From a virus: 45,168 bases of DNA. Made by a program: the position numbers and the translations under genes. The stretch is from the UHGV virus genome UHGV-0041136. One strand, given 5' to 3'. The notes below the pieces were generated by a model that made no database searches, had not been told where the DNA came from, and saw only the letters and a list, made by a program, of their open reading frames with translations. Positions 5,307-15,768 of the stretch are shown in pieces (position 1 is the first letter of the stretch; every line of letters starts with the position of its first letter).

Positions 5307-5504
5307 TTACACCAGCGATGGCGGCTCTGGTAACGGCATCCAGTGGGTAACATCGTCACTACTGATATTCGAGTTACGCGGCGCCCAACAATCCCAGAAG
5401 CCATCGCAATCCCGCCACATCACCTCAACGTTACCCCCATCCGAAACCAGCACATCTTCAAATTCTTCCGGCATCCGTTCACTACACTCAATCCACTTAC
5501 CCAT
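5307..5504 (-). CDS. DUF551-like small protein, copy 1
   Basis: MGKWIECSERMPEE...VTHWMPLPEPPSLV; WMPLPEPP C-terminus as I recall for DUF551 phage proteins. Confidence 0.5.
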   Translation of the reverse strand: MGKWIECSERMPEEFEDVLVSDGGNVEVMWRDCDGFWDCWAPRNSNISSDDVTHWMPLPEPPSLV

Positions 5505-5514
5505 ATCTCACCCC

Positions 5515-5700
5515 TTATTCATCACACTTCAGAGACTCAGGTAACGGCATCCAGTGTGTTACGCCAACACACTTAACGTATCCATCACAAACAAAGTCAC
5601 CGATGTATCTTGCTATAAAGCCATACCCGGCGCGGGCATAAACAATTACGTCCTCACCCTCTTCCGGCATCCGTTCACTACACTCAATCCACTTACCCAT
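5515..5700 (-). CDS. DUF551-like small protein, copy 2 (tandem paralog)
   Basis: MGKWIECSERMPEEGEDV...VTHWMPLPESLKCDE; identical first 14 residues and shared C-terminal motif with 5307..5504. Confidence 0.5.
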   Translation of the reverse strand: MGKWIECSERMPEEGEDVIVYARAGYGFIARYIGDFVCDGYVKCVGVTHWMPLPESLKCDE

Positions 5701-6895: not shown

Positions 6896-6927
6896 CGATT
6901 TTGTTAACTGATAATGAGGGTTTGAGA

Positions 6928-7098
6928 ATGACACAGAATGAGGTAGCTGAGCGTATCGGGGTTACTCGTCGAACGCTGAATAACTGGTTAAAGAGTGGGA
7001 AGTTCCCGGATTGTTGTATCCGCATTATGGGCCGCCGTCAGCCAGGTACTTTTGACCGGGAGAAAGTGGAAGCGTGGATTAAGGAGAATGTAAAATGA
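6928..7098 (+). CDS. small HTH DNA-binding protein (AlpA / excisionase-like HTH)
   Basis: ATG 6928 with GAGGG SD (track begins at TTG 6901); NEVAERIGVTRRTLNNWLKSGKFP...REKVEAWIKE resembles AlpA/Xis-type HTH. Confidence 0.55.
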   Translation: MTQNEVAERIGVTRRTLNNWLKSGKFPDCCIRIMGRRQPGTFDREKVEAWIKENVK

Positions 7099-7328
7099 CC
7101 GAGTTCCAGTCACGTGTATTTACGGCGGTCGTTTCGTTAACACGTAAAAAAGGGTCGTGCAGCGTTATCGACTTGCGCCGTAGTTATTTTAAGTACTATA
7201 GTTCAGCCATTATTGAAGGGTCGTTAAAGGTACTGGTTAAATCCGGTGTCGTGAAAAACGTTGGCGGGAAATATAGCGCCGTTGCAGAAGTTCGCGGAAT
7301 GGCAGCCACTTTAGAAGACCTGGAATAA
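7095..7328 (+). CDS. hypothetical protein (C-terminus ...ATLEDLE)
   Basis: ATG 7095 with AGGAG SD, ATGA overlap. Confidence 0.5.
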   Translation: MTEFQSRVFTAVVSLTRKKGSCSVIDLRRSYFKYYSSAIIEGSLKVLVKSGVVKNVGGKYSAVAEVRGMAATLEDLE

Positions 7329-7386
7329 AAGAAAGCCCCGACGCGGTGAACGCCGAGGCCAAATTACTTGCTGAAGGAAATACAAC

Positions 7387-9627
7387 ATGTCCGATGTAAT
7401 TTTATCCTACTCGTGGTCACGTCGCAACGCGCGGGCGGAGAAAAAGGATATAAACGTCAGAACCACGCATACGGCAACACTGGATGACCTGAAAGAGTTA
7501 ATCCAGCCACTGGATGCCGTTCGTGGCGGAATTAACCCTAAGACTGCGCCTGGCTATATTACTGCCGCGTGCGACTCGACGCACAGCACCGTAAAAGACC
7601 CGGAAACCGGTGACTTTAAGCAAGCGCGCAAAGGCTTCTTTTATCGCTGCGACGCGTCTGTAAGCAAATCGTCGCTGGCGTATCTTGACTTCGACAGCGC
7701 AACGCCGGAAGAGTATCAGGAAGCGGTGCGCCTGGTTAAGCGCAGCCGCCATGCTATGTGCCTATACACTACAGCGTCACATACCGATGAGTCGCCGCGC
7801 TTTCGCGTCGTCATGCCGCTGGCCCGCCCGGTCGAAGGCGGCAACATCATCCGTGTTCGTCATGGATTGCTCGAGCACTTCTTCAAAGGCATGGGCGCTG
7901 ACCGCAGCGGGTTCACTCTGTCGCAGCCGATGTACCTGCCGCCGGTCGGCTCACAGGTTATCTGGTCGCGTCGCAACGACCTGATCGACCCTGACGAGTT
8001 ACTGGAAGGCGTACCGGATTACGAGGTGAGCAGCGCATCTGACTATCAGATACCAGAAGAACTGCGCACTGCATTTACTGATGCGTTCGAAGCGCTGGCG
8101 TTTGAGTACGGAGGTATCATGACGCCCCGCGGCCTTAAGATGCCAGCTACGCCGGAACACGCAGAGAACTACAGCGACCCGACACCTCGCCCGGACGACT
8201 TCCTGCTGTGTTTCCCGCGTGAAGGGTACGAAGCGCCGAACGTAACCATGATTCACGACACCGACATTACAGCAACCGAAGGCATGTCGCCGAAAGAGGT
8301 GTGGAAATACGCGTGCGATGCGACCGGGCTGCCGTTCAGTGAAGTCGCCGAGGCTATCGGATGGGGTGCGCGTGAGTCAGTTTCATGCAGCCTCGACGAC
8401 CTGGAAGACGAGGATGACTCCGAGGAGGACGAGCTACCGGAACCGGTAAAGGCTGATTTCGTCGTTGAGGGGTACATGCCGTCGGATTGCATCTGGGATA
8501 TCGTCGGGGAATCTGGCACGTACAAATCGTTCTATACGCTGGGGATGATGTACCTTAGCGCCTCCGGATACCGGTTTGCGGGCGCTGACACACAGCGTTG
8601 CCACCACTTCTATATCGACGGTGAGGGTGGCGCAGCCACACGTACACGTATTGACGCGCTCGCGGCTAAATACGGCGCAGAGGGTAAAGATTATGTACAC
8701 GTCATCGACATGGGTGAAGTCGGCAAACTTAAAAGCCTGATTAAGTTAATGCGTGAAACTGCGGGCGATGAACCTATTGGCATGGTCGCGTTCGACACCC
8801 TCAACCAGACGCTGGCCCTGACGATTGATAAGTTTGACGAGAACAGTTCATCAACGGCAATCGGCATGGGTAAAGTTATCGCCATCCTGAAAGAAGTACG
8901 CGACGCGACTAAAGCCGCGGTAGGTGTTGTCCATCATACGCCGAAGGGGGGAAAGAAAGCCCGTGGCAGCGGGGCACTGTATGCAGGTGTCGACGTGGAA
9001 CTGACAATCGAACGTGCAACCGACCGTCAAATAAATGTATACCACTCTAAATTTAAGCACGGGCCTCAACAGAAAACTGTCGGTATGGTTCTGGAGTCCG
9101 TACAGTTCCGTGAAGCCCCGCCGCCGAAAGAATACCGTGCTGTTGAGTTCCTGGGTAGCACCGAGGAATATGGCACAATCGTAAACCTCGACCTGCCTGA
9201 GCCTCACAAGGCGCTTGTGCTGATGCCGTGGGGCTTCGAGCCGTTCAAGATTGACGAGGAGAAAGAGCGGGAAGAAGGGCTGACGAAAGAAGGTAAAGAA
9301 AACGTAAAGAATGCTGTAAAACGCGGGAAGGATGAAGGGCGTAAGGAATCAATACTCGCCGCGCTGGAAGACCTGCAACAGTCTAACGACACCGGACGAG
9401 GTTTTACCCAACGGCAGATAGTAGCGAACTCGGGCGACCACGCCATCACCAACCACCATCTCGAGAAGATGCTGAAAGACGGGGAGTTGATGCTCGGGTG
9501 CGATGTTAACGGTGAAGTTATGCCAGGCACATACCGGATACCGGAAAAGATGGGTGACAGATTAAGACCGAAGACAATATACGAACCAAATGAAATGCTA
9601 ACAGTGACAGAGGAGGATTTGGAGTAG
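7387..9627 (+). CDS. primase/helicase-type replication protein (N-terminal primase-polymerase-like, C-terminal RecA-like ATPase)
   Basis: YLDFDSATPEEY (DxD) in N-terminal half; acidic linker; Walker A GESGTYKS and VVHHTPKGG motif in C-terminal half; ends VTEEDLE. Confidence 0.7.
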   Translation: MSDVILSYSWSRRNARAEKKDINVRTTHTATLDDLKELIQPLDAVRGGINPKTAPGYITAACDSTHSTVKDPETGDFKQARKGFFYRCDASVSKSSLAYLDFDSATPEEYQEAVRLVKRSRHAMCLYTTASHTDESPRFRVVMPLARPVEGGNIIRVRHGLLEHFFKGMGADRSGFTLSQPMYLPPVGSQVIWSRRNDLIDPDELLEGVPDYEVSSASDYQIPEELRTAFTDAFEALAFEYGGIMTPRGLKMPATPEHAENYSDPTPRPDDFLLCFPREGYEAPNVTMIHDTDITATEGMSPKEVWKYACDATGLPFSEVAEAIGWGARESVSCSLDDLEDEDDSEEDELPEPVKADFVVEGYMPSDCIWDIVGESGTYKSFYTLGMMYLSASGYRFAGADTQRCHHFYIDGEGGAATRTRIDALAAKYGAEGKDYVHVIDMGEVGKLKSLIKLMRETAGDEPIGMVAFDTLNQTLALTIDKFDENSSSTAIGMGKVIAILKEVRDATKAAVGVVHHTPKGGKKARGSGALYAGVDVELTIERATDRQINVYHSKFKHGPQQKTVGMVLESVQFREAPPPKEYRAVEFLGSTEEYGTIVNLDLPEPHKALVLMPWGFEPFKIDEEKEREEGLTKEGKENVKNAVKRGKDEGRKESILAALEDLQQSNDTGRGFTQRQIVANSGDHAITNHHLEKMLKDGELMLGCDVNGEVMPGTYRIPEKMGDRLRPKTIYEPNEMLTVTEEDLE

Positions 9628-9636
9628 GTAAAAAGA

Positions 9637-9655
9637 AAGGGGCGTTAAGCCCCTT
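9637..9655. terminator. bidirectional hairpin terminator between convergent genes
   Basis: AAGGGGC-gttaa-GCCCCTT; A-run upstream on plus strand gives a T-run after the hairpin on the minus transcript. Confidence 0.5.
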
Positions 9656-9860
9656 CACCGAACGCCAGCCACTTGGCGTCTACTTGCAGCACTTCCGCCA
9701 GTTTAAACAGCGTCGCCGGGCGGACGTCCTGAGTTACCCCGAGCGCAAGCTGGTTAATTGCGCCCTGGGAAACGCCAGCCAGAACAGCCAGACGGCGCTG
9801 GGAGATGCCGAGTTCTTTACGGCGTTGTTCTACACGGATGCCTAGTTCAGATGGTTGCAT
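9645..9860 (-). CDS. XRE-family HTH regulator (Cro/CI-type)
   Basis: ATG 9860 with AAGGAG SD; RRKELGISQRRLAVLAGVSQGAINQLALG is a classic HTH_3 segment; only minus-strand gene inside the plus-strand module. Confidence 0.75.
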   Translation of the reverse strand: MQPSELGIRVEQRRKELGISQRRLAVLAGVSQGAINQLALGVTQDVRPATLFKLAEVLQVDAKWLAFGEGA

Positions 9861-9888
9861 GTCAATTACTCCTTAGTTAGTTGATATG

Positions 9889-9905
9889 TGAATAGTACCA
9901 TATTA
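9889..9905 (-). promoter_or_regulatory. operator copy (AATAGtaccATATT) overlapping the extended -10 (TGgTACTAT) of the regulator promoter
   Basis: minus strand reads ...aatatggTACTATtcacatatc...AAGGAG...ATG. Confidence 0.45.
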
Positions 9906-9924
9906 ATTATTTTAGAAAAGCCCA

Positions 9925-9953
9925 TTGACATAATGAATAGTTAGCTATTATAG
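9925..9953 (+). promoter_or_regulatory. class II promoter: -35 TTGACA, operator AATAGttagCTATT overlapping -10 (TATTAT/ATTATA)
   Basis: cccaTTGACAtaatgAATAGttagCTATTatag, 35 nt upstream of ATG 9986; same arrangement at 12629..12656. Confidence 0.5.
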
Positions 9954-9985
9954 TTAGCCCATACCAAACGAGAGGAGAGAAACAA

Positions 9986-10480
9986 ATGTTAGACCAATTC
10001 TTAAAATTACTGGAACGTTTCGTAGTTGCACATGAACTGATTGCCGCGAACAGTGCGAAACAAGTTGTCGTTGCTGAAGTAGATGGGTTAACCGCAGAGA
10101 CTAAAGAACAGGTGAAAGAAAAAGTAGTTAAAGCCGAAACAAAAGAAATCCCGGTGGAAGGCGAAGGCATCGTTGACACTAAACAGGCGGAAGAAGAGAA
10201 GCCTAAACGCAAGCCGCGTAAAGCTAAAGTAGAGGAGCCGACGCCAGAACCGGAAGAAGAGAAGGAAGAAGTTGATTACCAGTCTCTGCGTGACCAGATT
10301 CAGGCTATCGACGATGCGATTAACGAAGGTCCAAGCGATGCCGCGTGCGATGATTCTGATGAACTGCTGGAAGAGTTCACCGGTAAGAAAATGAAGATTG
10401 CTGCGATTAAAGACGAAGACCTGGCTGAATACCTGGAACGCCTCACAGCAATCAAGAACAAGTATTTCGAAGAAGAATAA
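9986..10480 (+). CDS. acidic/lysine-rich protein of unknown function
   Basis: ATG 9986 with GAGGAGAG SD; long E/K/P-rich segment, ends KYFEEE. Confidence 0.55.
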   Translation: MLDQFLKLLERFVVAHELIAANSAKQVVVAEVDGLTAETKEQVKEKVVKAETKEIPVEGEGIVDTKQAEEEKPKRKPRKAKVEEPTPEPEEEKEEVDYQSLRDQIQAIDDAINEGPSDAACDDSDELLEEFTGKKMKIAAIKDEDLAEYLERLTAIKNKYFEEE

Positions 10481-10488
10481 TTATCCCG

Positions 10489-10507
10489 GCGGCCTTCGGG
10501 CCGCTTT
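10489..10507 (+). terminator. hairpin GCGGCC-ttcg-GGCCGC followed by TTT
   Basis: UUCG tetraloop stem-loop directly after stop at 10480; short T tract. Confidence 0.4.
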
Positions 10508-10524
10508 AACTGAGGGTCGGAAAT

Positions 10525-10914
10525 ATGAAATACGAAGCTATGAGCGATTTTGAAATTAATTGTGCAGTGGCAGTCGCATTAGATTTGAATGAACATTTGT
10601 TCTTTCCATCTGGCGTCGATGACTTTGATAGTGATACTGATGATTCAGATATGGGGCCAGTGTGGCAAACACGAATGCCGTTTGTTAAAGGTTTTAGACC
10701 ATCTAATGGTAATTTATTCAACCCGTGCAACAACATAGATATTGCGTGGCAAATTATTACTCGAAATCATATATCGATTGAATGCGTTACGGTTAACCGA
10801 CATACGTTTACGTATAGGGCGTATCACTCGGCATCGTTCACCAAAAGTACGCACGAAAACCCACTCCGCGCCGCCATGATTGTATTTCTGAAAATGCAGG
10901 AGATGGCGCAATGA
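10525..10914 (+). CDS. hypothetical phage protein (possibly DUF2591-like)
   Basis: ATG 10525; motif LFNPCNNIDIAWQII; family assignment from memory only. Confidence 0.4.
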   Translation: MKYEAMSDFEINCAVAVALDLNEHLFFPSGVDDFDSDTDDSDMGPVWQTRMPFVKGFRPSNGNLFNPCNNIDIAWQIITRNHISIECVTVNRHTFTYRAYHSASFTKSTHENPLRAAMIVFLKMQEMAQ

Positions 10915-11183
10915 TTTACCAACTCTACCGCGCCGTCGACAGGCGGGATAACACGGAGGCGTTATGGCTATTGCGTGCGCCGTCCGGTGCGCACCAGATG
11001 GAAGAGATGGCGTACTTAGGCAAAGCACCGCGGCCTAAAGATATCGGCCGTCACGTGTCGCAGATTAAGCGCACGACTTTCGCCAAACCTGACTTTTATG
11101 TCTTCGAGTCGATGTATAGCTGGGCCTTACATTGTGACCACAAGACCAGACATTTAATTGACCAGTGGGAGAACAGGGCATGA
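10911..11183 (+). CDS. hypothetical protein
   Basis: ATGA overlap with upstream gene. Confidence 0.45.
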   Translation: MIYQLYRAVDRRDNTEALWLLRAPSGAHQMEEMAYLGKAPRPKDIGRHVSQIKRTTFAKPDFYVFESMYSWALHCDHKTRHLIDQWENRA

Positions 11184-12454
11184 TTCTAAAAGAACGCGGT
11201 GGCAATAACGATGTGCACGCCTTACTGTCGCCGTCTGGCGCTAAAAAGTGGCTAAGCTGCGCCGCATCACTGGCCTGTGAGAAAGATATTCCTAACACAT
11301 CCGGTAAAGCTGCGGTATTAGGCACGGCTATGCACACCATAGCTGAGATGCACCTTAACCAGTACATCAAAGGCACTGCGTTGCCGTTAGAGCGTGAAGT
11401 TGGTGCTTATGTTCTGGATGAGGGTAGAGGCCAGATTAAGGCGCTAATCAGCCCGATGAAAGGCGCGGTACTGATTACGGCTGACATGATTGAACAGGTT
11501 CGCAAGTACACCGACTACTGCAAAGCGATTATCGATGTAGCGACTTACGCCAAGCTGGAAATGCGCGTCAATCTTACTGAGGTATTGCATCCGGGTTACG
11601 AAGGCGTTGAGACGTTCGGGACCGCTGACCTTGTTGCCGTACAGGAACTGGCGAACACCGACGAGCACATGTTAATTATCGGTGACCTGAAAACAGGGCG
11701 ACATCGTGTTGAAGCAAAAGAAAACAAGCAGCTTATGCTTTACGCTCTCGGTGTTTATCGCCGACTCAAGAGACGTTACAACATCACAGTTGTGCGTCTG
11801 GTTATCTTCCAGCCGTATGCTGGAGGTGCGTCGGAGTGGGACATCTCGGTTGAAGGTCTGGAACTGTTCGCTAAGTTCGCACAGAAACGTGCGCTGTTAG
11901 CGCTTGATGCTTATTTCCGTGGCAAGAAGAATCTGAAAGCATCTGACTTCAGGCCGTCGGTAGATGGTTGTCAGTGGTGTCGGTTCGCTGAACAATGCGC
12001 TGCGCGTACAAAAACCGTTAACTCGGTACTGGCGGAAGAACTGGAAGACGACTTTGCGCTGGAACTGACGCCTGAGCAACTCGTAGCTGAGTATGAGAAG
12101 TTGCCGTTGCTGCGACAGCACATTGATAAGGTCGAGAAAGCTATGGCTGCCGCGTTGCATTCCGGTAAGAAAGTGCCGGGGTACAAGTTGGTAGAAGGAC
12201 GCCCAGGCAATCGTGCGTGGAAAGATGAAGACGCCGTAAATAAATTCAGAGAAAACCATGTAAACGGCTACTTATTAGATAAACTAGTGCCAGTTACCCC
12301 AACAGAAGCAGAAAAAACCATAGGTAAAATTGACCCAGAACTGTGGGAAGAATTGGCTAAACTCGTGACCCGTAAGCCAGGCGCGCCATGCGTCGCAACG
12401 GCAGATGACAAACGTCCTGAGTGGATTCAGGTAACAGAGGAGGATTTAGAATGA
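11180..12454 (+). CDS. PD-(D/E)XK nuclease, Cas4-like / DUF2800-type
   Basis: ATG 11180 (track starts at GTG 11165); N-terminal LLSPSGAKKWLSC; C-terminal cysteines DGCQWCRFAEQC typical of Cas4-like Fe-S nucleases; ends VTEEDLE. Confidence 0.6.
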   Translation: MILKERGGNNDVHALLSPSGAKKWLSCAASLACEKDIPNTSGKAAVLGTAMHTIAEMHLNQYIKGTALPLEREVGAYVLDEGRGQIKALISPMKGAVLITADMIEQVRKYTDYCKAIIDVATYAKLEMRVNLTEVLHPGYEGVETFGTADLVAVQELANTDEHMLIIGDLKTGRHRVEAKENKQLMLYALGVYRRLKRRYNITVVRLVIFQPYAGGASEWDISVEGLELFAKFAQKRALLALDAYFRGKKNLKASDFRPSVDGCQWCRFAEQCAARTKTVNSVLAEELEDDFALELTPEQLVAEYEKLPLLRQHIDKVEKAMAAALHSGKKVPGYKLVEGRPGNRAWKDEDAVNKFRENHVNGYLLDKLVPVTPTEAEKTIGKIDPELWEELAKLVTRKPGAPCVATADDKRPEWIQVTEEDLE

Positions 12455-12624
12455 TGGTTTATATTCTCACGCGGTATCACCGCCGATATTCTATTCAAGA
12501 ACTTGATATTGTTTCTGTTCACGCTAAACGCGCCGACGCCGACAAAATTGCAGAAGAGAAGAACTCAAAGCATGAGGCGGTGCAGCCTTATATTTATAAG
12601 GTAGTTCCGAAGAAACTTAAATAA
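12451..12624 (+). CDS. hypothetical small protein
   Basis: ATG 12451 with AGGAGGA SD, ATGA overlap (track starts at GTG 12421). Confidence 0.45.
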   Translation: MMVYILTRYHRRYSIQELDIVSVHAKRADADKIAEEKNSKHEAVQPYIYKVVPKKLK

Positions 12625-12628
12625 AGTG

Positions 12629-12656
12629 TTGACACCTGAATAGTTAGCTATTATAG
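12629..12656 (+). promoter_or_regulatory. class II promoter: -35 TTGACA, operator AATAGttagCTATT, -10 TATTAT
   Basis: gtgTTGACAcctgAATAGttagCTATTatagtt, same arrangement as 9925..9953. Confidence 0.5.
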
Positions 12657-12725
12657 TTTTAATCACTGGCCGGGCAGCTTCCCGGAGTAAACTTTGAAAT
12701 ATAAACTGAAAAGCGAGAAATCACG

Positions 12726-13355
12726 ATGGGTATTAAACTGAATCTGCGTAAAGTAAACACTGCATGGGTTAACGTATTCGAACGCGCTGCTGATTCTGAG
12801 GACAAGAAAACCGGTAAACTGATTAAGGGCAAATATCAGGTTACGGTTCTTATGCAGCCTGACCATCCTCAAATTGATGCGCTTTATGATACCGCGTTGG
12901 AAGTTGTAACAGAGGCGATCGGGGCAGCTGCTGCTGAGAAATGGATGAAGGCGAACTACGGCGAAGACCACCATGCTGATAAATGCTGCGTCCGTGACCT
13001 GGCAATGCGCGACAATCCGATTGAAGATTTTGAAGAAGGTCTGTATTTCCGCGCTACTAACAACCGACAACCTGTGATTATGACATCGGCTAAAGGCGAA
13101 AAACAAACCGAGCCTGATTTCAACATCGACGGGAAGGAAATAGAAGGCGAGCAGGTATATAGCGGATGTGTCGCAAACGTATCTGTAGAGTTATGGTGGC
13201 ACAAAGATTGGAAAAACCTGTGCGCTACCATCCTCGGCATCAAGTATATGGGTGAAGGTAAACGCTTCGGCGGCTCCAGTGTAGTAGCGAGCACTGACGA
13301 CCTGGAAGACGACGAAGAAGATGCTGCACCACGCCGCGAACGTCGTCGCCGCTAA
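12726..13355 (+). CDS. ssDNA-binding-like protein (DUF2815-type)
   Basis: position between Cas4-like nuclease and DNA polymerase as in PolA-type phage modules; acidic C-terminal region DDLEDDEEDA then RRERRRR. Confidence 0.5.
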   Translation: MGIKLNLRKVNTAWVNVFERAADSEDKKTGKLIKGKYQVTVLMQPDHPQIDALYDTALEVVTEAIGAAAAEKWMKANYGEDHHADKCCVRDLAMRDNPIEDFEEGLYFRATNNRQPVIMTSAKGEKQTEPDFNIDGKEIEGEQVYSGCVANVSVELWWHKDWKNLCATILGIKYMGEGKRFGGSSVVASTDDLEDDEEDAAPRRERRRR

Positions 13356-13374
13356 TATCTGAATCAATTTAACT

Positions 13375-13396
13375 AGGCCCTTTATTGGGCCTTTTT
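13375..13396 (+). terminator. hairpin AGGCCC-tttatt-GGGCCT followed by TTTT
   Basis: directly after stop at 13355. Confidence 0.5.
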
Positions 13397-13414
13397 ACTA
13401 AGGGGTCGAAAATA

Positions 13415-13570
13415 ATGTTTTTCTGTAAGCACGTTTACCGCTATATGAAACCGCTTCCGTGGTATGCAGATGAGTACCGGGCTGGGTACAGGCATGTGTG
13501 GATTTGCCGTGATTGTATGAAAATAAGATTAAGCGAAACGAAGGCACTGGATTTAAGGAAAAAGAAATGA
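13415..13570 (+). CDS. small Cys/His-containing protein (51 aa)
   Basis: ATG 13415 with AGGGG SD; FFCKH...WICRDC; stop overlaps polymerase ATG. Confidence 0.35.
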   Translation: MFFCKHVYRYMKPLPWYADEYRAGYRHVWICRDCMKIRLSETKALDLRKKK

Positions 13571-15768
13571 GCTACTTATACCTGGACTTTGAAACATTCT
13601 CCGAAGCCGATTTAAAGAAAGTCGGCTCCTACGCTTACGCCGAACACCCGTCAACCGAAGTGCTTATCTGCACATATGCTTTTGACGACGAGCCTGTGCG
13701 GGTATGGGATTGCACCGACGGCAGCGACATGCCAGGTGATTTACACCGCGCGCTACGCCGTCTGGTTAAACCGAACAGCCGCATCAAGATGGTATGGCAC
13801 AACGGCTCAATGTTCGATAGGTTAATCATGAAGCACTGCTGGGGTTTTGACATCCCGGTAAGCAACACCATTGATACGATGATTTGGGCGTTTCGCCACG
13901 CGCTGCCGGGTTCACTTGATGCATTGTGCGAAGTGCTGGGTGTATCTGCGGACAATGCAAAAGATAAACGCGGCAAGGCGCTGATTCAGCGTTTTTCTAA
14001 ACCGACACCGAAGAACTACAAAATTCGCCGCTATACCGCCGAAACGCACCCGGACGAGTGGGCGCTGTTCATCAAGTACGCCGTCAGCGACATCACCGCA
14101 ATGCGTGAAGTCTTCCATAAGCTACCACGTTGGGGTAACTCCGAGTTCGAGGACCTGGTACTGGAACTGGACCAGTTAATCAACGACCGAGGGTTTAAGG
14201 TTGACGTCGCACTGGCGGAAGCCGCGATTGAAGCCGTAGAGAAGCACAAGACACAGTTACAGGAAGAAGCCCAACGCAAATACGGCGGCTCGCTTACGGG
14301 TAAGGACTTTCTGCCGATTCTGCGTGAACTTGCGCCAGCGCACCGAATCCACAACGCGCAGAAGTCGACGCTAAATGACCTGTTGGCGGATGATGATTTA
14401 CCGGGCGACGCACGCACGATTATCGAAATGCGCCTCGGGGCCGCGTCCACAGCGTCAACGAAATATAACCCGCTTCTGTTGGGCCGCTCGTCTGACGACC
14501 GCCGTCGTGGTTGCTTGCAGTACGGCGGGGCAAAACGCACTCTGCGATGGGCGGGTAAAGGCTTTCAGCCGCAGAACCTGGCGCGCGGTTACTATCACGA
14601 TGATGAACTGGATAAAGGCATTTCAGCGTTACTTAAGGGTCGAGCTCATCGCCGTTTTGATGTAGCCAAGCTAACGGCATCGACGGTTCGTAGCTGCATC
14701 ATTCCGGAAGCAGGGCATAAGTTTGTCGTCGCCGATTACTCGAACGTTGAAGGCCGGGGGCTTGCGTGGCTGGCTGGTGAAGAAACCGCGCTCGATACTT
14801 TCCGCGCTGGACTGGATATTTACTGTGTAACCGCGGGTAAGATGTTCGGCATGGACCCTGACGATATTAAGAAAAACTTCAAGGAAATCAGACAGATAGG
14901 TAAGGCATGCGAACTGGGCCTCGGCTATGAGGGGGGCGTCGGAGCGTTCGTTACGTTCGCTAAAAACTTAGGTCTTGACCTTATCGAGATGGCAAAAACA
15001 ATGGACGGTACATTCCCTGACCACATCTGGGCCGCTACCGCACGTGGGTATGAGTGGGCGCGTATTCAGGAAGCCAAGCGACCGCCGCATCCCGGTGAAA
15101 AGGATGACCGACCGTCATATATTCTGGACAAGAAAGTGTGGCGTACTTGTGACGCTATCAAGCGTATGTGGCGCGAGGCACACCCTGAAACAGTAGCGTT
15201 CTGGCGCGACCTTAAAGACGGAATTTTAGCTGCTGTTCGTAATCCTGGTCGTGAATTTTGGGCGGGGGCACACTTGCGCAGGAATGGGGAAAGGGCCATC
15301 CGCATATGGCGTACTGTTGAATTTGATTCGTCCGGTAGGAAGGTTCCCGGTTGGTGGTTGTGTATGGAGTTGCCGTCGGGTCGTATCCTCTCGTATCCGG
15401 GAATCGGGGTTAGTGTGACAAAGGAAACAGATGAAGACGGACGGGTGAACACAAATGTGCGAATCAAGTATCAAGGCGAAAACCAGTTAACCCGCCAATG
15501 GACTACCCTGTACACACACGGCGGCAAAGCCTGTGAAAACCTGGTCCAGGCACTGTGTCGTGATTTACTTGCGTATGCGATGATTAACGTTGAGCGGGGT
15601 GGGTATCCTATCGTACTTTCGGTACACGATGAACTGGTATGTGAAACTCCAGACACACCTGAGTACACGGTGTCTGAACTGGAAAAATTAATGTGTGAGT
15701 TGCCAGAGTGGGCGGAGGGTTTTCCTCTTGTAGCAGAAGGGGCGGAGATGAAGCGTTATGCTAAGTAA
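13567..15768 (+). CDS. DNA polymerase, family A, with 3'-5' exonuclease domain
   Basis: ATG 13567; exo motif LDFETFS; motif A VVADYSNVEGR; motif B KKNFKEIRQIGKACELGLGYEGG; motif C LSVHDELVCE. Confidence 0.9.
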   Translation: MSYLYLDFETFSEADLKKVGSYAYAEHPSTEVLICTYAFDDEPVRVWDCTDGSDMPGDLHRALRRLVKPNSRIKMVWHNGSMFDRLIMKHCWGFDIPVSNTIDTMIWAFRHALPGSLDALCEVLGVSADNAKDKRGKALIQRFSKPTPKNYKIRRYTAETHPDEWALFIKYAVSDITAMREVFHKLPRWGNSEFEDLVLELDQLINDRGFKVDVALAEAAIEAVEKHKTQLQEEAQRKYGGSLTGKDFLPILRELAPAHRIHNAQKSTLNDLLADDDLPGDARTIIEMRLGAASTASTKYNPLLLGRSSDDRRRGCLQYGGAKRTLRWAGKGFQPQNLARGYYHDDELDKGISALLKGRAHRRFDVAKLTASTVRSCIIPEAGHKFVVADYSNVEGRGLAWLAGEETALDTFRAGLDIYCVTAGKMFGMDPDDIKKNFKEIRQIGKACELGLGYEGGVGAFVTFAKNLGLDLIEMAKTMDGTFPDHIWAATARGYEWARIQEAKRPPHPGEKDDRPSYILDKKVWRTCDAIKRMWREAHPETVAFWRDLKDGILAAVRNPGREFWAGAHLRRNGERAIRIWRTVEFDSSGRKVPGWWLCMELPSGRILSYPGIGVSVTKETDEDGRVNTNVRIKYQGENQLTRQWTTLYTHGGKACENLVQALCRDLLAYAMINVERGGYPIVLSVHDELVCETPDTPEYTVSELEKLMCELPEWAEGFPLVAEGAEMKRYAK

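Follow-up and report, generated by a model that had tools for sequence, protein, structure and literature searches.

The window, by which we mean the whole stretch of 45,168 nucleotides of UHGV virus genome UHGV-0041136, carries several plus-strand replication genes whose products bear a short acidic motif around one leucine at or near the C-terminus. A helicase-primase with an AAA_25 core (7387..9627; PF13481, E=8.6e-18; phrog_3228, replicative helicase-primase) ends in TVTEEDLE, with tail codons at 9607..9624, and a Cas4-like DUF2800 PD-(D/E)XK nuclease (11165..12454; PF10926, 238.9 bits) ends in QVTEEDLE, with tail codons at 12434..12451. A putative winged-helix protein of 77 amino acids (aa) (7095..7328; phrog_5169) ends in ATLEDLE (tail codons 7308..7325). 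In the gp2.5-like/DUF2815 single-stranded DNA (ssDNA)-binding and annealing protein (SSB; 12726..13355; PF10991, E=2.4e-11; phrog_112) the motif TDDLEDDEED, encoded at 13293..13322, is followed by AAPRRERRRR. The family-A DNA polymerase (PolA; 13567..15768; Pfam DNA_pol_A) ends in ...MKRYAK and has no acidic tail. The Pfam and PHROGs scan behind these assignments covered the genes at 6.9-15.8 kb. A preliminary description of this DNA had listed the endings TVTEEDLE and QVTEEDLE, TLEDLE for the 77-aa protein and DDLEDDEED near the C-terminus of the SSB, and the translations of the open reading frames (ORFs) bear them out. The analysis presented here suggests that the ...[TS][DE][DE]DLE ends are probably short linear docking motifs, shared with the tail of the phage's own SSB and directed to a common receptor.

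The full C-terminal ends read ...NEMLTVTEEDLE in the helicase-primase and ...PEWIQVTEEDLE in the nuclease, and EPNEMLTVTEEDLE is an example of a tail peptide. When all stop-to-stop ORFs of at least 40 aa in the six frames were considered, a [DE]L[DE] C-terminus was found only in the helicase-primase, the nuclease and the 77-aa protein. Of the other 74 ORFs of the window, compared with the nuclease tail over their final 12 aa, the helicase-primase scored highest (34) and the 77-aa protein next (22), against a 95th percentile of 13.3. At the DNA level, the 14-mer ACAGAGGAGGATTT is present in exactly 2 copies in the window, at 9607-9620 and 12434-12447 (chance expectation 0.16 with <=2 mismatches). 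The tail of the 77-aa protein is encoded by GAA GAC CTG GAA, unlike the tails of the helicase-primase and the nuclease.

The tails lie outside the predicted folded domains, as do the flexible acidic extensions of the T7 type. The PF10926 match covers residues 18-418 of the 429 residues of the nuclease, and in an alignment of seven lineages the last invariant residue is P418 (…DDKRP…), after which come a linker of variable length and the acidic end. Residues D155, D174 and K176 (D...D-x-K) and a four-Cys cluster (C32/C269/C272/C278) are invariant in the same alignment, and the protein is accordingly a predicted nuclease of the DUF2800/Cas4-like PD-(D/E)XK family. The AlphaFold2 model of the 77-aa protein has a predicted local distance difference test (pLDDT) score >90 for residues 1-64 (H-H-H-beta-beta) and <50 for residues 65-77; Foldseek returned weak generic winged-helix matches only (LexA-N, MotA-N, RPA32-C; E >1e-3). 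The model of the helicase-primase, made with a shallow alignment, was poor overall, and only its relative drop was used: the last confident domain spans about residues 650-720 (pLDDT 71-81) and residues 722-746 fall below 50. The window SSB scored 44.1 bits against PF10991 (curated cut-off 26). A family profile of 13 SSB sequences (A4) matched Enc34 ORF6 (5ODJ) with E=5e-58 and also 4JG2 and 4KLK, and a single-sequence phmmer search of the PDB with the window SSB gave no match. The protein is thus assigned to the DUF2815/gp2.5-like SSB family.

Megablast of positions 7000-13600 of the window returned 458 phage records, mainly Escherichia and Salmonella siphoviruses of the Guernseyvirinae (Kagunavirus, Jerseyvirus), and the DUF2800 nuclease is 99.3% identical to that of Raoultella phage RP180 (species Kagunavirus RP180). 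By these matches the window is a Kagunavirus phage. The preliminary description had proposed aligning the C-termini across homologues and would have taken a lack of conservation as grounds for dropping its proposal; the tail is conserved in each of the three proteins. In the nuclease tail E-E-D-L-E, the D and the L are invariant in 115/115 clusters (80-98% identity), as conserved as residues of the core; the E is nearly so, and the three linker residues upstream vary. A TEEDLE-type tail is found on 116/120 helicase-primase clusters, many of which have a different mosaic N-terminal half. Homologues of the 77-aa protein end in …E[DE]LE in 29/31 cases, with one …EDLA and one truncated. Among Kaguna-, Jersey- and Dhillonviruses the tail codons turn over synonymously at every position (ACA/ACG/ACC, GAG/GAA, GAT/GAC, TTG/TTA/CTG/CTC), and the amino acids are unchanged or conservatively changed; selection therefore acts on the peptide. 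The tail is under purifying selection as peptide, not as DNA.

Some variation was seen around these genes. Many helicase-primase homologues (P0339-P0411) are about 90% identical over only 53-58% of the window query (7387-9627); the N-terminal (primase) half would therefore be a mosaic block exchanged among Kagunaviruses, and the C-terminal half with its tail is kept. The slot just 5' of the helicase-primase also varies (window compared with L001, L008, L011, L014 and L015). Some Kagunaviruses have the 77-aa EDLE protein there, others an unrelated 96-aa or 70-aa protein without an EDLE tail (…HLMECLAKR, …AWFSGCK), and an identical hairpin lies 3' of all variants. Jerseyvirus nucleases have an insertion of about 50 aa after the Cys cluster (476 aa, compared with 429 aa in the window; L002 9007-10437). 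In contig L013 the nuclease ORF ends early (…SHGVCF), which suggests an interruption or a sequencing break.

The tails of more distant relatives were compared in annotated phages and in 80 viral contigs found with the nuclease alignment; ORFs were called and classified with phmmer, and the C-termini tabulated. In Kagunavirus the helicase/primase and the nuclease end in TEEDLE, the SSB has TDDLED… and the 77-aa protein TLEDLE. The corresponding ends in Jerseyvirus SETP13 are TTEGDLE, VTEDDLEA, VDDLED… and TPEDLE. Dhillonvirus SO-1 has ATDDDLKD on the helicase/primase and ATDEDLSNE on the nuclease. Chivirus SeWh-1 has PFDDEDEV on the helicase/primase, AWDDEDDDEV on the nuclease and AWDEDEDWEDEV (WDEDEDWEDEV) on the SSB; its other bearers are an SNF2 protein (VWDDEE), a terminase-small-subunit-like (TerS-like) protein (GDEVDDDEV) and gp71 (EEDDV), and the …DDEDEV-type tail is on five or six Chivirus proteins. 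Aeromonas phiWae15 shows MHDDDDEL (helicase/primase), MFDDDDDEL (nuclease), DEDDDDL (SSB) and EAEDDEL (TerS-like), and Achromobacter AchV4 shows PEDIEALF, SDIDDLL and DEDDPLA on the helicase/primase, nuclease and SSB. In a large set of prophage-like IMG/VR contigs the nuclease and SSB ends likewise match, in two parts: …NDFDDVEAAESLI and …DDFDDVSEGADAESLI, …SSDFDDLTAEEESLV and …DDEFDDLTEGADADALV, and …EAAAEFI and …TDAGEFV. No polymerase tail was found in any lineage sampled.

This likeness was quantified after the nuclease cores had been grouped in 22 clusters at 60% identity, with one representative per cluster that had both proteins (18-19 pairs per comparison). Own-genome and cross-genome pairs were compared by their best ungapped BLOSUM score in a permutation test. 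Nuclease and primase tails scored 15.1 in their own genome and 9.7 across genomes (p=1e-5); for nuclease and SSB tails the scores were 18.2 and 15.4 (p=0.003). The control with PolA showed no own-genome excess (p=0.77), and the control with SNF2 gave p=0.04, apparently through the Chi-like case. The longest shared exact k-mer led to the same result (p=1e-5 for nuclease–primase, p=2e-4 for nuclease–SSB), the own-genome k-mers being VTEEDLE, DDDDEL, ASADEF, SADDFD, DFDDV, FDDLT and DLWDD. Composition alone is insufficient to explain the excess, because cross-genome pairs are equally acidic. When the nuclease tail was searched against all ORFs of 7 genomes, the best matches were primase, SSB, winged-helix or TerS-like proteins. 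By these comparisons, the tails of non-homologous proteins co-vary by phage lineage.

A few further proteins may belong with these bearers. The 164-aa acidic low-complexity protein of the window (9986..10480, plus strand; phrog_3127) ends in ...NKYFEEE. Its analogues by position end in ...YFELED (SO-1 gp46), ...EEDDV (Chi-like gp71), ...EEEEEDL (Aeromonas) and ...EDDDMLA (Achromobacter), each in its own lineage's tail; homology among them is weak, and the protein is tentatively a possible extra bearer. The proteins annotated or positioned as terminase small subunit end in the replication tail of their lineage in SeWh-1 (…DEVDDDEV; L004 9035-11150) and in phiWae15 (…EAEDDEL; L005 10796-11479). 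Together with the tail of the SNF2 helicase of SeWh-1 they hint at a link of packaging to the replication hub. The SSB of Dhillonvirus SO-1 (L003 10659-11444) has a tail of alternating acidic and basic modules, with …DDDDEDEAPRKRRK… repeated.

The motif that the enzymes share is that of the SSB. In an alignment of SSBs from 13 lineages, Leu193 of TDDLED in the window shares its column with Phe (DDFDD) or Trp (DAWDED, DLWDDD), about 10 residues past the conserved …DGEAFGGG end of the OB (oligonucleotide/oligosaccharide-binding) fold. The DDLED of the window SSB is, by this alignment, the family-wide tail motif of gp2.5-like SSBs, and what the enzymes bear is more than an acidic end: it is a copy of the SSB tail. 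The pattern is widespread among the nucleases, of which a search at E≤0.001 gave 11,803 representatives. In a set of 147 diverse DUF2800 nucleases, each standing for one cluster at 50% identity, 69% have [DE][DE]Φ or [DE]Φ[DE] (Φ, hydrophobic) in the last 25 aa, compared with 16% of background windows. The Φ residue of these tails is F in 107 cases, L in 59 and W in 3. All DUF2800 relatives nearest to the window nuclease (36-58% identity) have …D[DE]DL…, and tails elsewhere have V, L, I, F, D or E as last residue. From the survey and the SSB alignment, the …EDLE of the window is therefore the form taken in enterobacterial phages by a nuclease tail that is found throughout the family and copies that of the cognate SSB. 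The window SSB has in addition the basic octapeptide PRRERRRR (13329..13352) after its acidic motif, and the Chi-like and Enc34 SSBs end acidic; the octapeptide could fold back on the acidic tails or bind nucleic acid.

Taken together, these data argue that the tails are probably docking motifs, each placed at the tip of a flexible extension and consisting of a single hydrophobic residue flanked by acidic ones. The helicase-primase, the Cas4-like nuclease and the winged-helix protein would each carry a copy of the SSB tail motif (TDDLED), and the receptor site of the SSB tail would be open to all three, because the tails are alike. Shared docking would tether the enzymes that make or process ssDNA in one replication and recombination machine, with the tail bearers exchanging or competing at the shared site. 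Several points weigh against this. Acidic C-termini are common, the helicase-primase model is of low confidence overall (mean pLDDT 51), and the tail is found on the helicase/primase in just about 6/18 lineages. The effect size for nuclease and SSB tails (18.2 against 15.4) is modest, and the 18-19 lineage clusters are few and not fully independent. The nuclease tail codons double as a Shine-Dalgarno (SD) sequence, so that conservation in some genomes could be partly at the RNA level. The motif of the window SSB is internal, with the basic octapeptide after it, and the enzyme tails end in Glu, not in a terminal aromatic or hydrophobic residue. Such a terminal residue is critical in T7 gp2.5 and gp4 and in bacterial SSB.

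The preliminary description had drawn its docking proposal from SSBs and the T7 helicase, and the precedents support it. The acidic tails of the T7 gp4 hexamer bind positively charged patches on gp5 (PMC8472574), and the gp2.5 tail, which binds both gp5 and the helicase, is required for the gp6 exonuclease to be stimulated (PMC4124056). As in T7, the helicase-primase and the gp2.5-fold SSB of the window both have flexible acidic tails, which are alike in the two (TEEDLE and TDDLED) and accompany a tail-less family-A polymerase around which the T7 replisome is built. The T7 gp2.5 tail contacts, in addition, the gp6 exonuclease and the SSB's own cleft. The window differs from T7 in that its helicase-primase has an AAA_25/RepA-like core and is not of the gp4 type, and in that the tail is also on the Cas4-like nuclease and the winged-helix protein, and in Chi-like phages on the SNF2 and TerS-like proteins. 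The window tails end in Leu-Glu and not in a terminal Phe, and the motif of the window SSB is followed by the basic octapeptide.

In T4, the gp43, gp55 and gp33 proteins have highly similar hydrophobic-acidic C-termini on divergent linkers, which are freely interchangeable and bind one hub, the clamp (PMC2988020). The window resembles T4 in that several unrelated proteins have highly similar acidic-hydrophobic C-termini on divergent linkers of variable length. The motif sequence is unlike, the T4 bearers link replication to transcription and not to a nuclease, and no clamp was found among the window genes scanned. The bacterial SSB C-terminal peptide is likewise an acidic-hydrophobic handle, universal in organising genome-maintenance enzymes. 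Its polarity is partly inverted here: in bacteria only the SSB bears the peptide and the enzymes bear the pockets, whereas here the enzymes bear the peptide. The window tails also end in …EDLE and not in the terminal ...D-[IL]-P-F with a free carboxylate.

The closest structural precedent is within the SSB family of the window. In the crystal of Enc34 ORF6, the traceable end of the tail inserts in the concave beta-sheet of a neighbouring molecule and buries 842 Å², the last 11 residues being disordered; the same insertion was described for two other DUF2815 crystals and for gp2.5 (PMC5686142). The tail thus docks in trans in these crystals, and co-crystals of Enc34 ORF6 with ssDNA formed only once the tail was removed. 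The traceable end, which we reconstruct from published primers and alignment as …GRVDTSDAYD, would place a Tyr in the Φ column, aligned with Leu193 of the window. The window SSB shares with these proteins (5ODJ, 5ODK, 5ODL, 4JG2, 4KLK) the family fold assignment, an acidic tail and Leu193 at the Tyr/Trp/Phe position. It differs from Enc34 ORF6 by its basic C-terminal extension, and the published work describes the tail for the SSB only, not on the neighbouring DUF2800 nuclease or primase.

Two explanations at the level of nucleic acid can be largely set aside. Within the nuclease tail codons, GAGGAGG (12437..12443) stands 7 nt before the ATG (12451) of a 57-aa gene (12451..12624, plus strand) that overlaps the nuclease stop as GAATGA, and in relatives L011, L014 and L002 the helicase-primase stop overlaps a downstream start in the same manner (GAATGA). 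Glu-Glu-Asp could then be the incidental product of an SD sequence serving translational coupling. This is very improbable and already largely refuted. An SD run 5-10 nt 5' of a start was seen at the nuclease tail only, and not at the helicase-primase or winged-helix tails, at the SSB motif, which is internal, or in relatives without the downstream gene. The helicase-primase is followed at 359 nt by the next plus-strand start (9986), with a minus-strand helix-turn-helix (HTH) gene of the Cro/CI type (9645..9860; Pfam HTH_3, E=1.2e-12) and its terminator hairpin (9636..9656, from a terminator scan) in between. A hairpin directly follows the tail of the 77-aa protein, whose next plus-strand start is 59 nt on, and in Chi-like and Aeromonas phages the next start is 40-55 nt from the tails. 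Relative L014 keeps SEEDLE on the nuclease directly 5' of a promoter (AGT GAA GAA GAT TTA GAA TAA, with the non-SD codons GAA GAA), Jerseyvirus SETP13 (L002) retains TEDDLEA in non-SD codons and has no gene downstream of it, the helicase-primase tail persists with either a terminator or an overlapping accessory gene after it, and the invariant Leu and the Thr/Ser have no SD role. As a general cause, a by-product of ribosome-binding sites is ruled out, since the other tails have no start nearby and relatives keep the peptide without the gene; for the nuclease a facultative double coding of tail and SD sequence is retained. The preliminary description, which had put the next gene about 360 bp away and dismissed a ribosome-binding site, was right for the helicase-primase and missed the overlap in the nuclease. 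It had also noted that near-identical DNA encodes the shared heptapeptide. The 14 nt of exact identity, and the position of both gene ends at mosaic junctions, with accessory genes present in some relatives and absent from others, could point to recent copying of one cassette to two gene ends, by gene conversion or a shared recombination junction, with no selection on the peptide. We consider this the least credible of the explanations, and it was rejected: the flanking codons differ synonymously (GTG/GTA, TTG/TTA, GAG/GAA), the peptide is kept with entirely different codons where the nucleases are 45% identical, and, given identical peptides and the codon usage of the phage, at least 4/7 identical codons are expected with P=0.26. 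Because it is expected from the shared peptide, the 14-nt identity needs no explanation of its own; the heptapeptide and the repeated 14-mer stand as described.

The two other alternatives accept that the peptide matters and differ on its partner. One is that the tails imitate the C-terminus of bacterial SSB or a clamp-binding motif, and so recruit phage enzymes to members of the host SSB interactome or the beta clamp, or else bring host factors into the replisome of the phage. The tip of E. coli SSB is DFDDDIPF, and the wider family motif DDFDD[ILV] resembles it; the ends …DLF, …DLI or …SLI of some lineages recall clamp-binding pentapeptides, and phages with the duf2800–gp2.5–polA module are without a classical ssb gene (PMC8093625). 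We regard this mimicry as improbable, since phages of the same host have different tails: in Salmonella, Jerseyvirus …DLE and Chivirus …DDEDEV; in E. coli, Kagunavirus …EEDLE and Dhillonvirus …DDLKD/…DLSNE. A co-evolving phage partner therefore fits better than a fixed host pocket, and the Leu-Glu ends of the window lack the terminal Pro-Phe with free carboxylate that host pockets for the SSB C-terminus recognise. The other is that each tail shields the DNA-binding surface of its own protein as a DNA mimic or autoinhibitory segment with no common partner, the likeness being due to composition and shared genome ancestry. Acidic tails do regulate DNA binding in cis in T7 gp2.5 and T4 gp32, all bearers here are DNA-binding proteins, and removal of the Enc34 ORF6 tail alters the discrimination of ssDNA and dsDNA (PMC5686142). 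This is also quite improbable: identical 5-7-mers are found in non-homologous proteins of one genome (VTEEDLE, DFDDV, AESLI, DDDDEL, ASADEF), cross-genome pairings of equally acidic tails score lower, and the single hydrophobic position is invariant.

Returning to docking at a common receptor, two phage sites can be considered. The receptor may be the basic OB-fold cleft of the SSB, in which case the helicase and the nuclease would carry SSB and hand it to the ssDNA that they generate, the ssDNA displacing the tail. It may also be basic patches on the family-A polymerase, which is a candidate by analogy with gp5 of T7. In a scan of their sequences PolA and SNF2 showed conserved basic stretches, among them KDKRGKALIQRFSKPTPKNYKIR of PolA, near residue 148-175, which are only suggestive as tail-binding sites. 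Since tails differ among phages that infect one host, a host receptor is less likely. Provided that docking is real, the SSB cleft would be the foremost candidate at somewhat less than an even chance, and PolA and a host or other protein would each be a possible but weaker one; the three are not mutually exclusive. A wider proposal, which we find possible but doubtful, is that the whole duf2800–gp2.5–polA module, which thousands of phages and prophages carry, is organised by one "SSB-tail code" with the SSB OB cleft as receptor. With a copy of the SSB tail, the enzymes that create ssDNA (the helicase-primase and the Cas4-like exonuclease; in some lineages SNF2 and the terminase small subunit) would arrive with SSB already bound and give it up to nascent ssDNA, which would displace the tail. 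The endings of the lineages (…DLE, …DEV, …DEL, …SLI) would then be specificity determinants that separate the machineries of co-infecting phages.

The duf2800–gp2.5–polA module has been defined by gene neighbourhood and is conserved in phages of Firmicutes and Gram-negative bacteria (PMC8093625). The window holds exactly these genes; the module was known from gene neighbourhoods, and the shared tail motif is the addition made here. The other plus-strand genes of the region are an excisionase-like HTH gene (6901..7098), NinX (10525..10914) and a gene for a 90-aa protein between NinX and the nuclease. Two sigma-70 promoter-like sites were observed at 9925-9955 and 12629-12658 (TTGACA, 17-18 nt, TATAGT; 11/12 consensus matches), ahead of the plus-strand gene blocks that start at 9986 and 12726. 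Both contain the same 21-mer GAATAGTTAGCTATTATAGTT, with an inverted repeat AATAG…CTATT that spans the -10 region, and two relatives, L014 and L002, have this element 3' of their nuclease. It may serve the divergent Cro/CI-type HTH gene as an operator. On the minus strand, 5307-5504 and 5515-5700 are adjoining small paralogues that both start with MGKWIECSERMPEE…, a tandem duplication (DUF551-type per the RP180 annotation).

Acidic C-terminal tails that organise a replisome are textbook knowledge for T7, T4 and bacterial SSB. To our knowledge, the duf2800–gp2.5–polA module has no biochemistry beyond one SSB crystal structure. An earlier description of shared tails in this module was not found in the literature on Enc34, DUF2800/DUF2815, RP180 and SSB-tail mimicry, of which our coverage was not exhaustive. 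The docking-tail principle is thus known, and what is new is which proteins bear the tail (a Cas4-like nuclease, a non-gp4 helicase-primase and a winged-helix protein, with SNF2 and TerS-like proteins in Chi-like phages), that the SSB tail is copied, and how broad the family is. The same device would be used on a different protein set, notably a Cas4-like nuclease, in a replication module that ranks among the most widespread in tailed phages. The co-variation gives a simple handle, peptides of 6-15 residues, for mapping the protein contacts of an uncharacterised replisome, and a DDF/DDL-type tail could serve as an annotation rule that marks members of the replication machine. The tails can help to explain how a nuclease and an annealing SSB are coupled, and they may make it possible to predict whether exchanged replication modules are compatible in engineered or mosaic phages.

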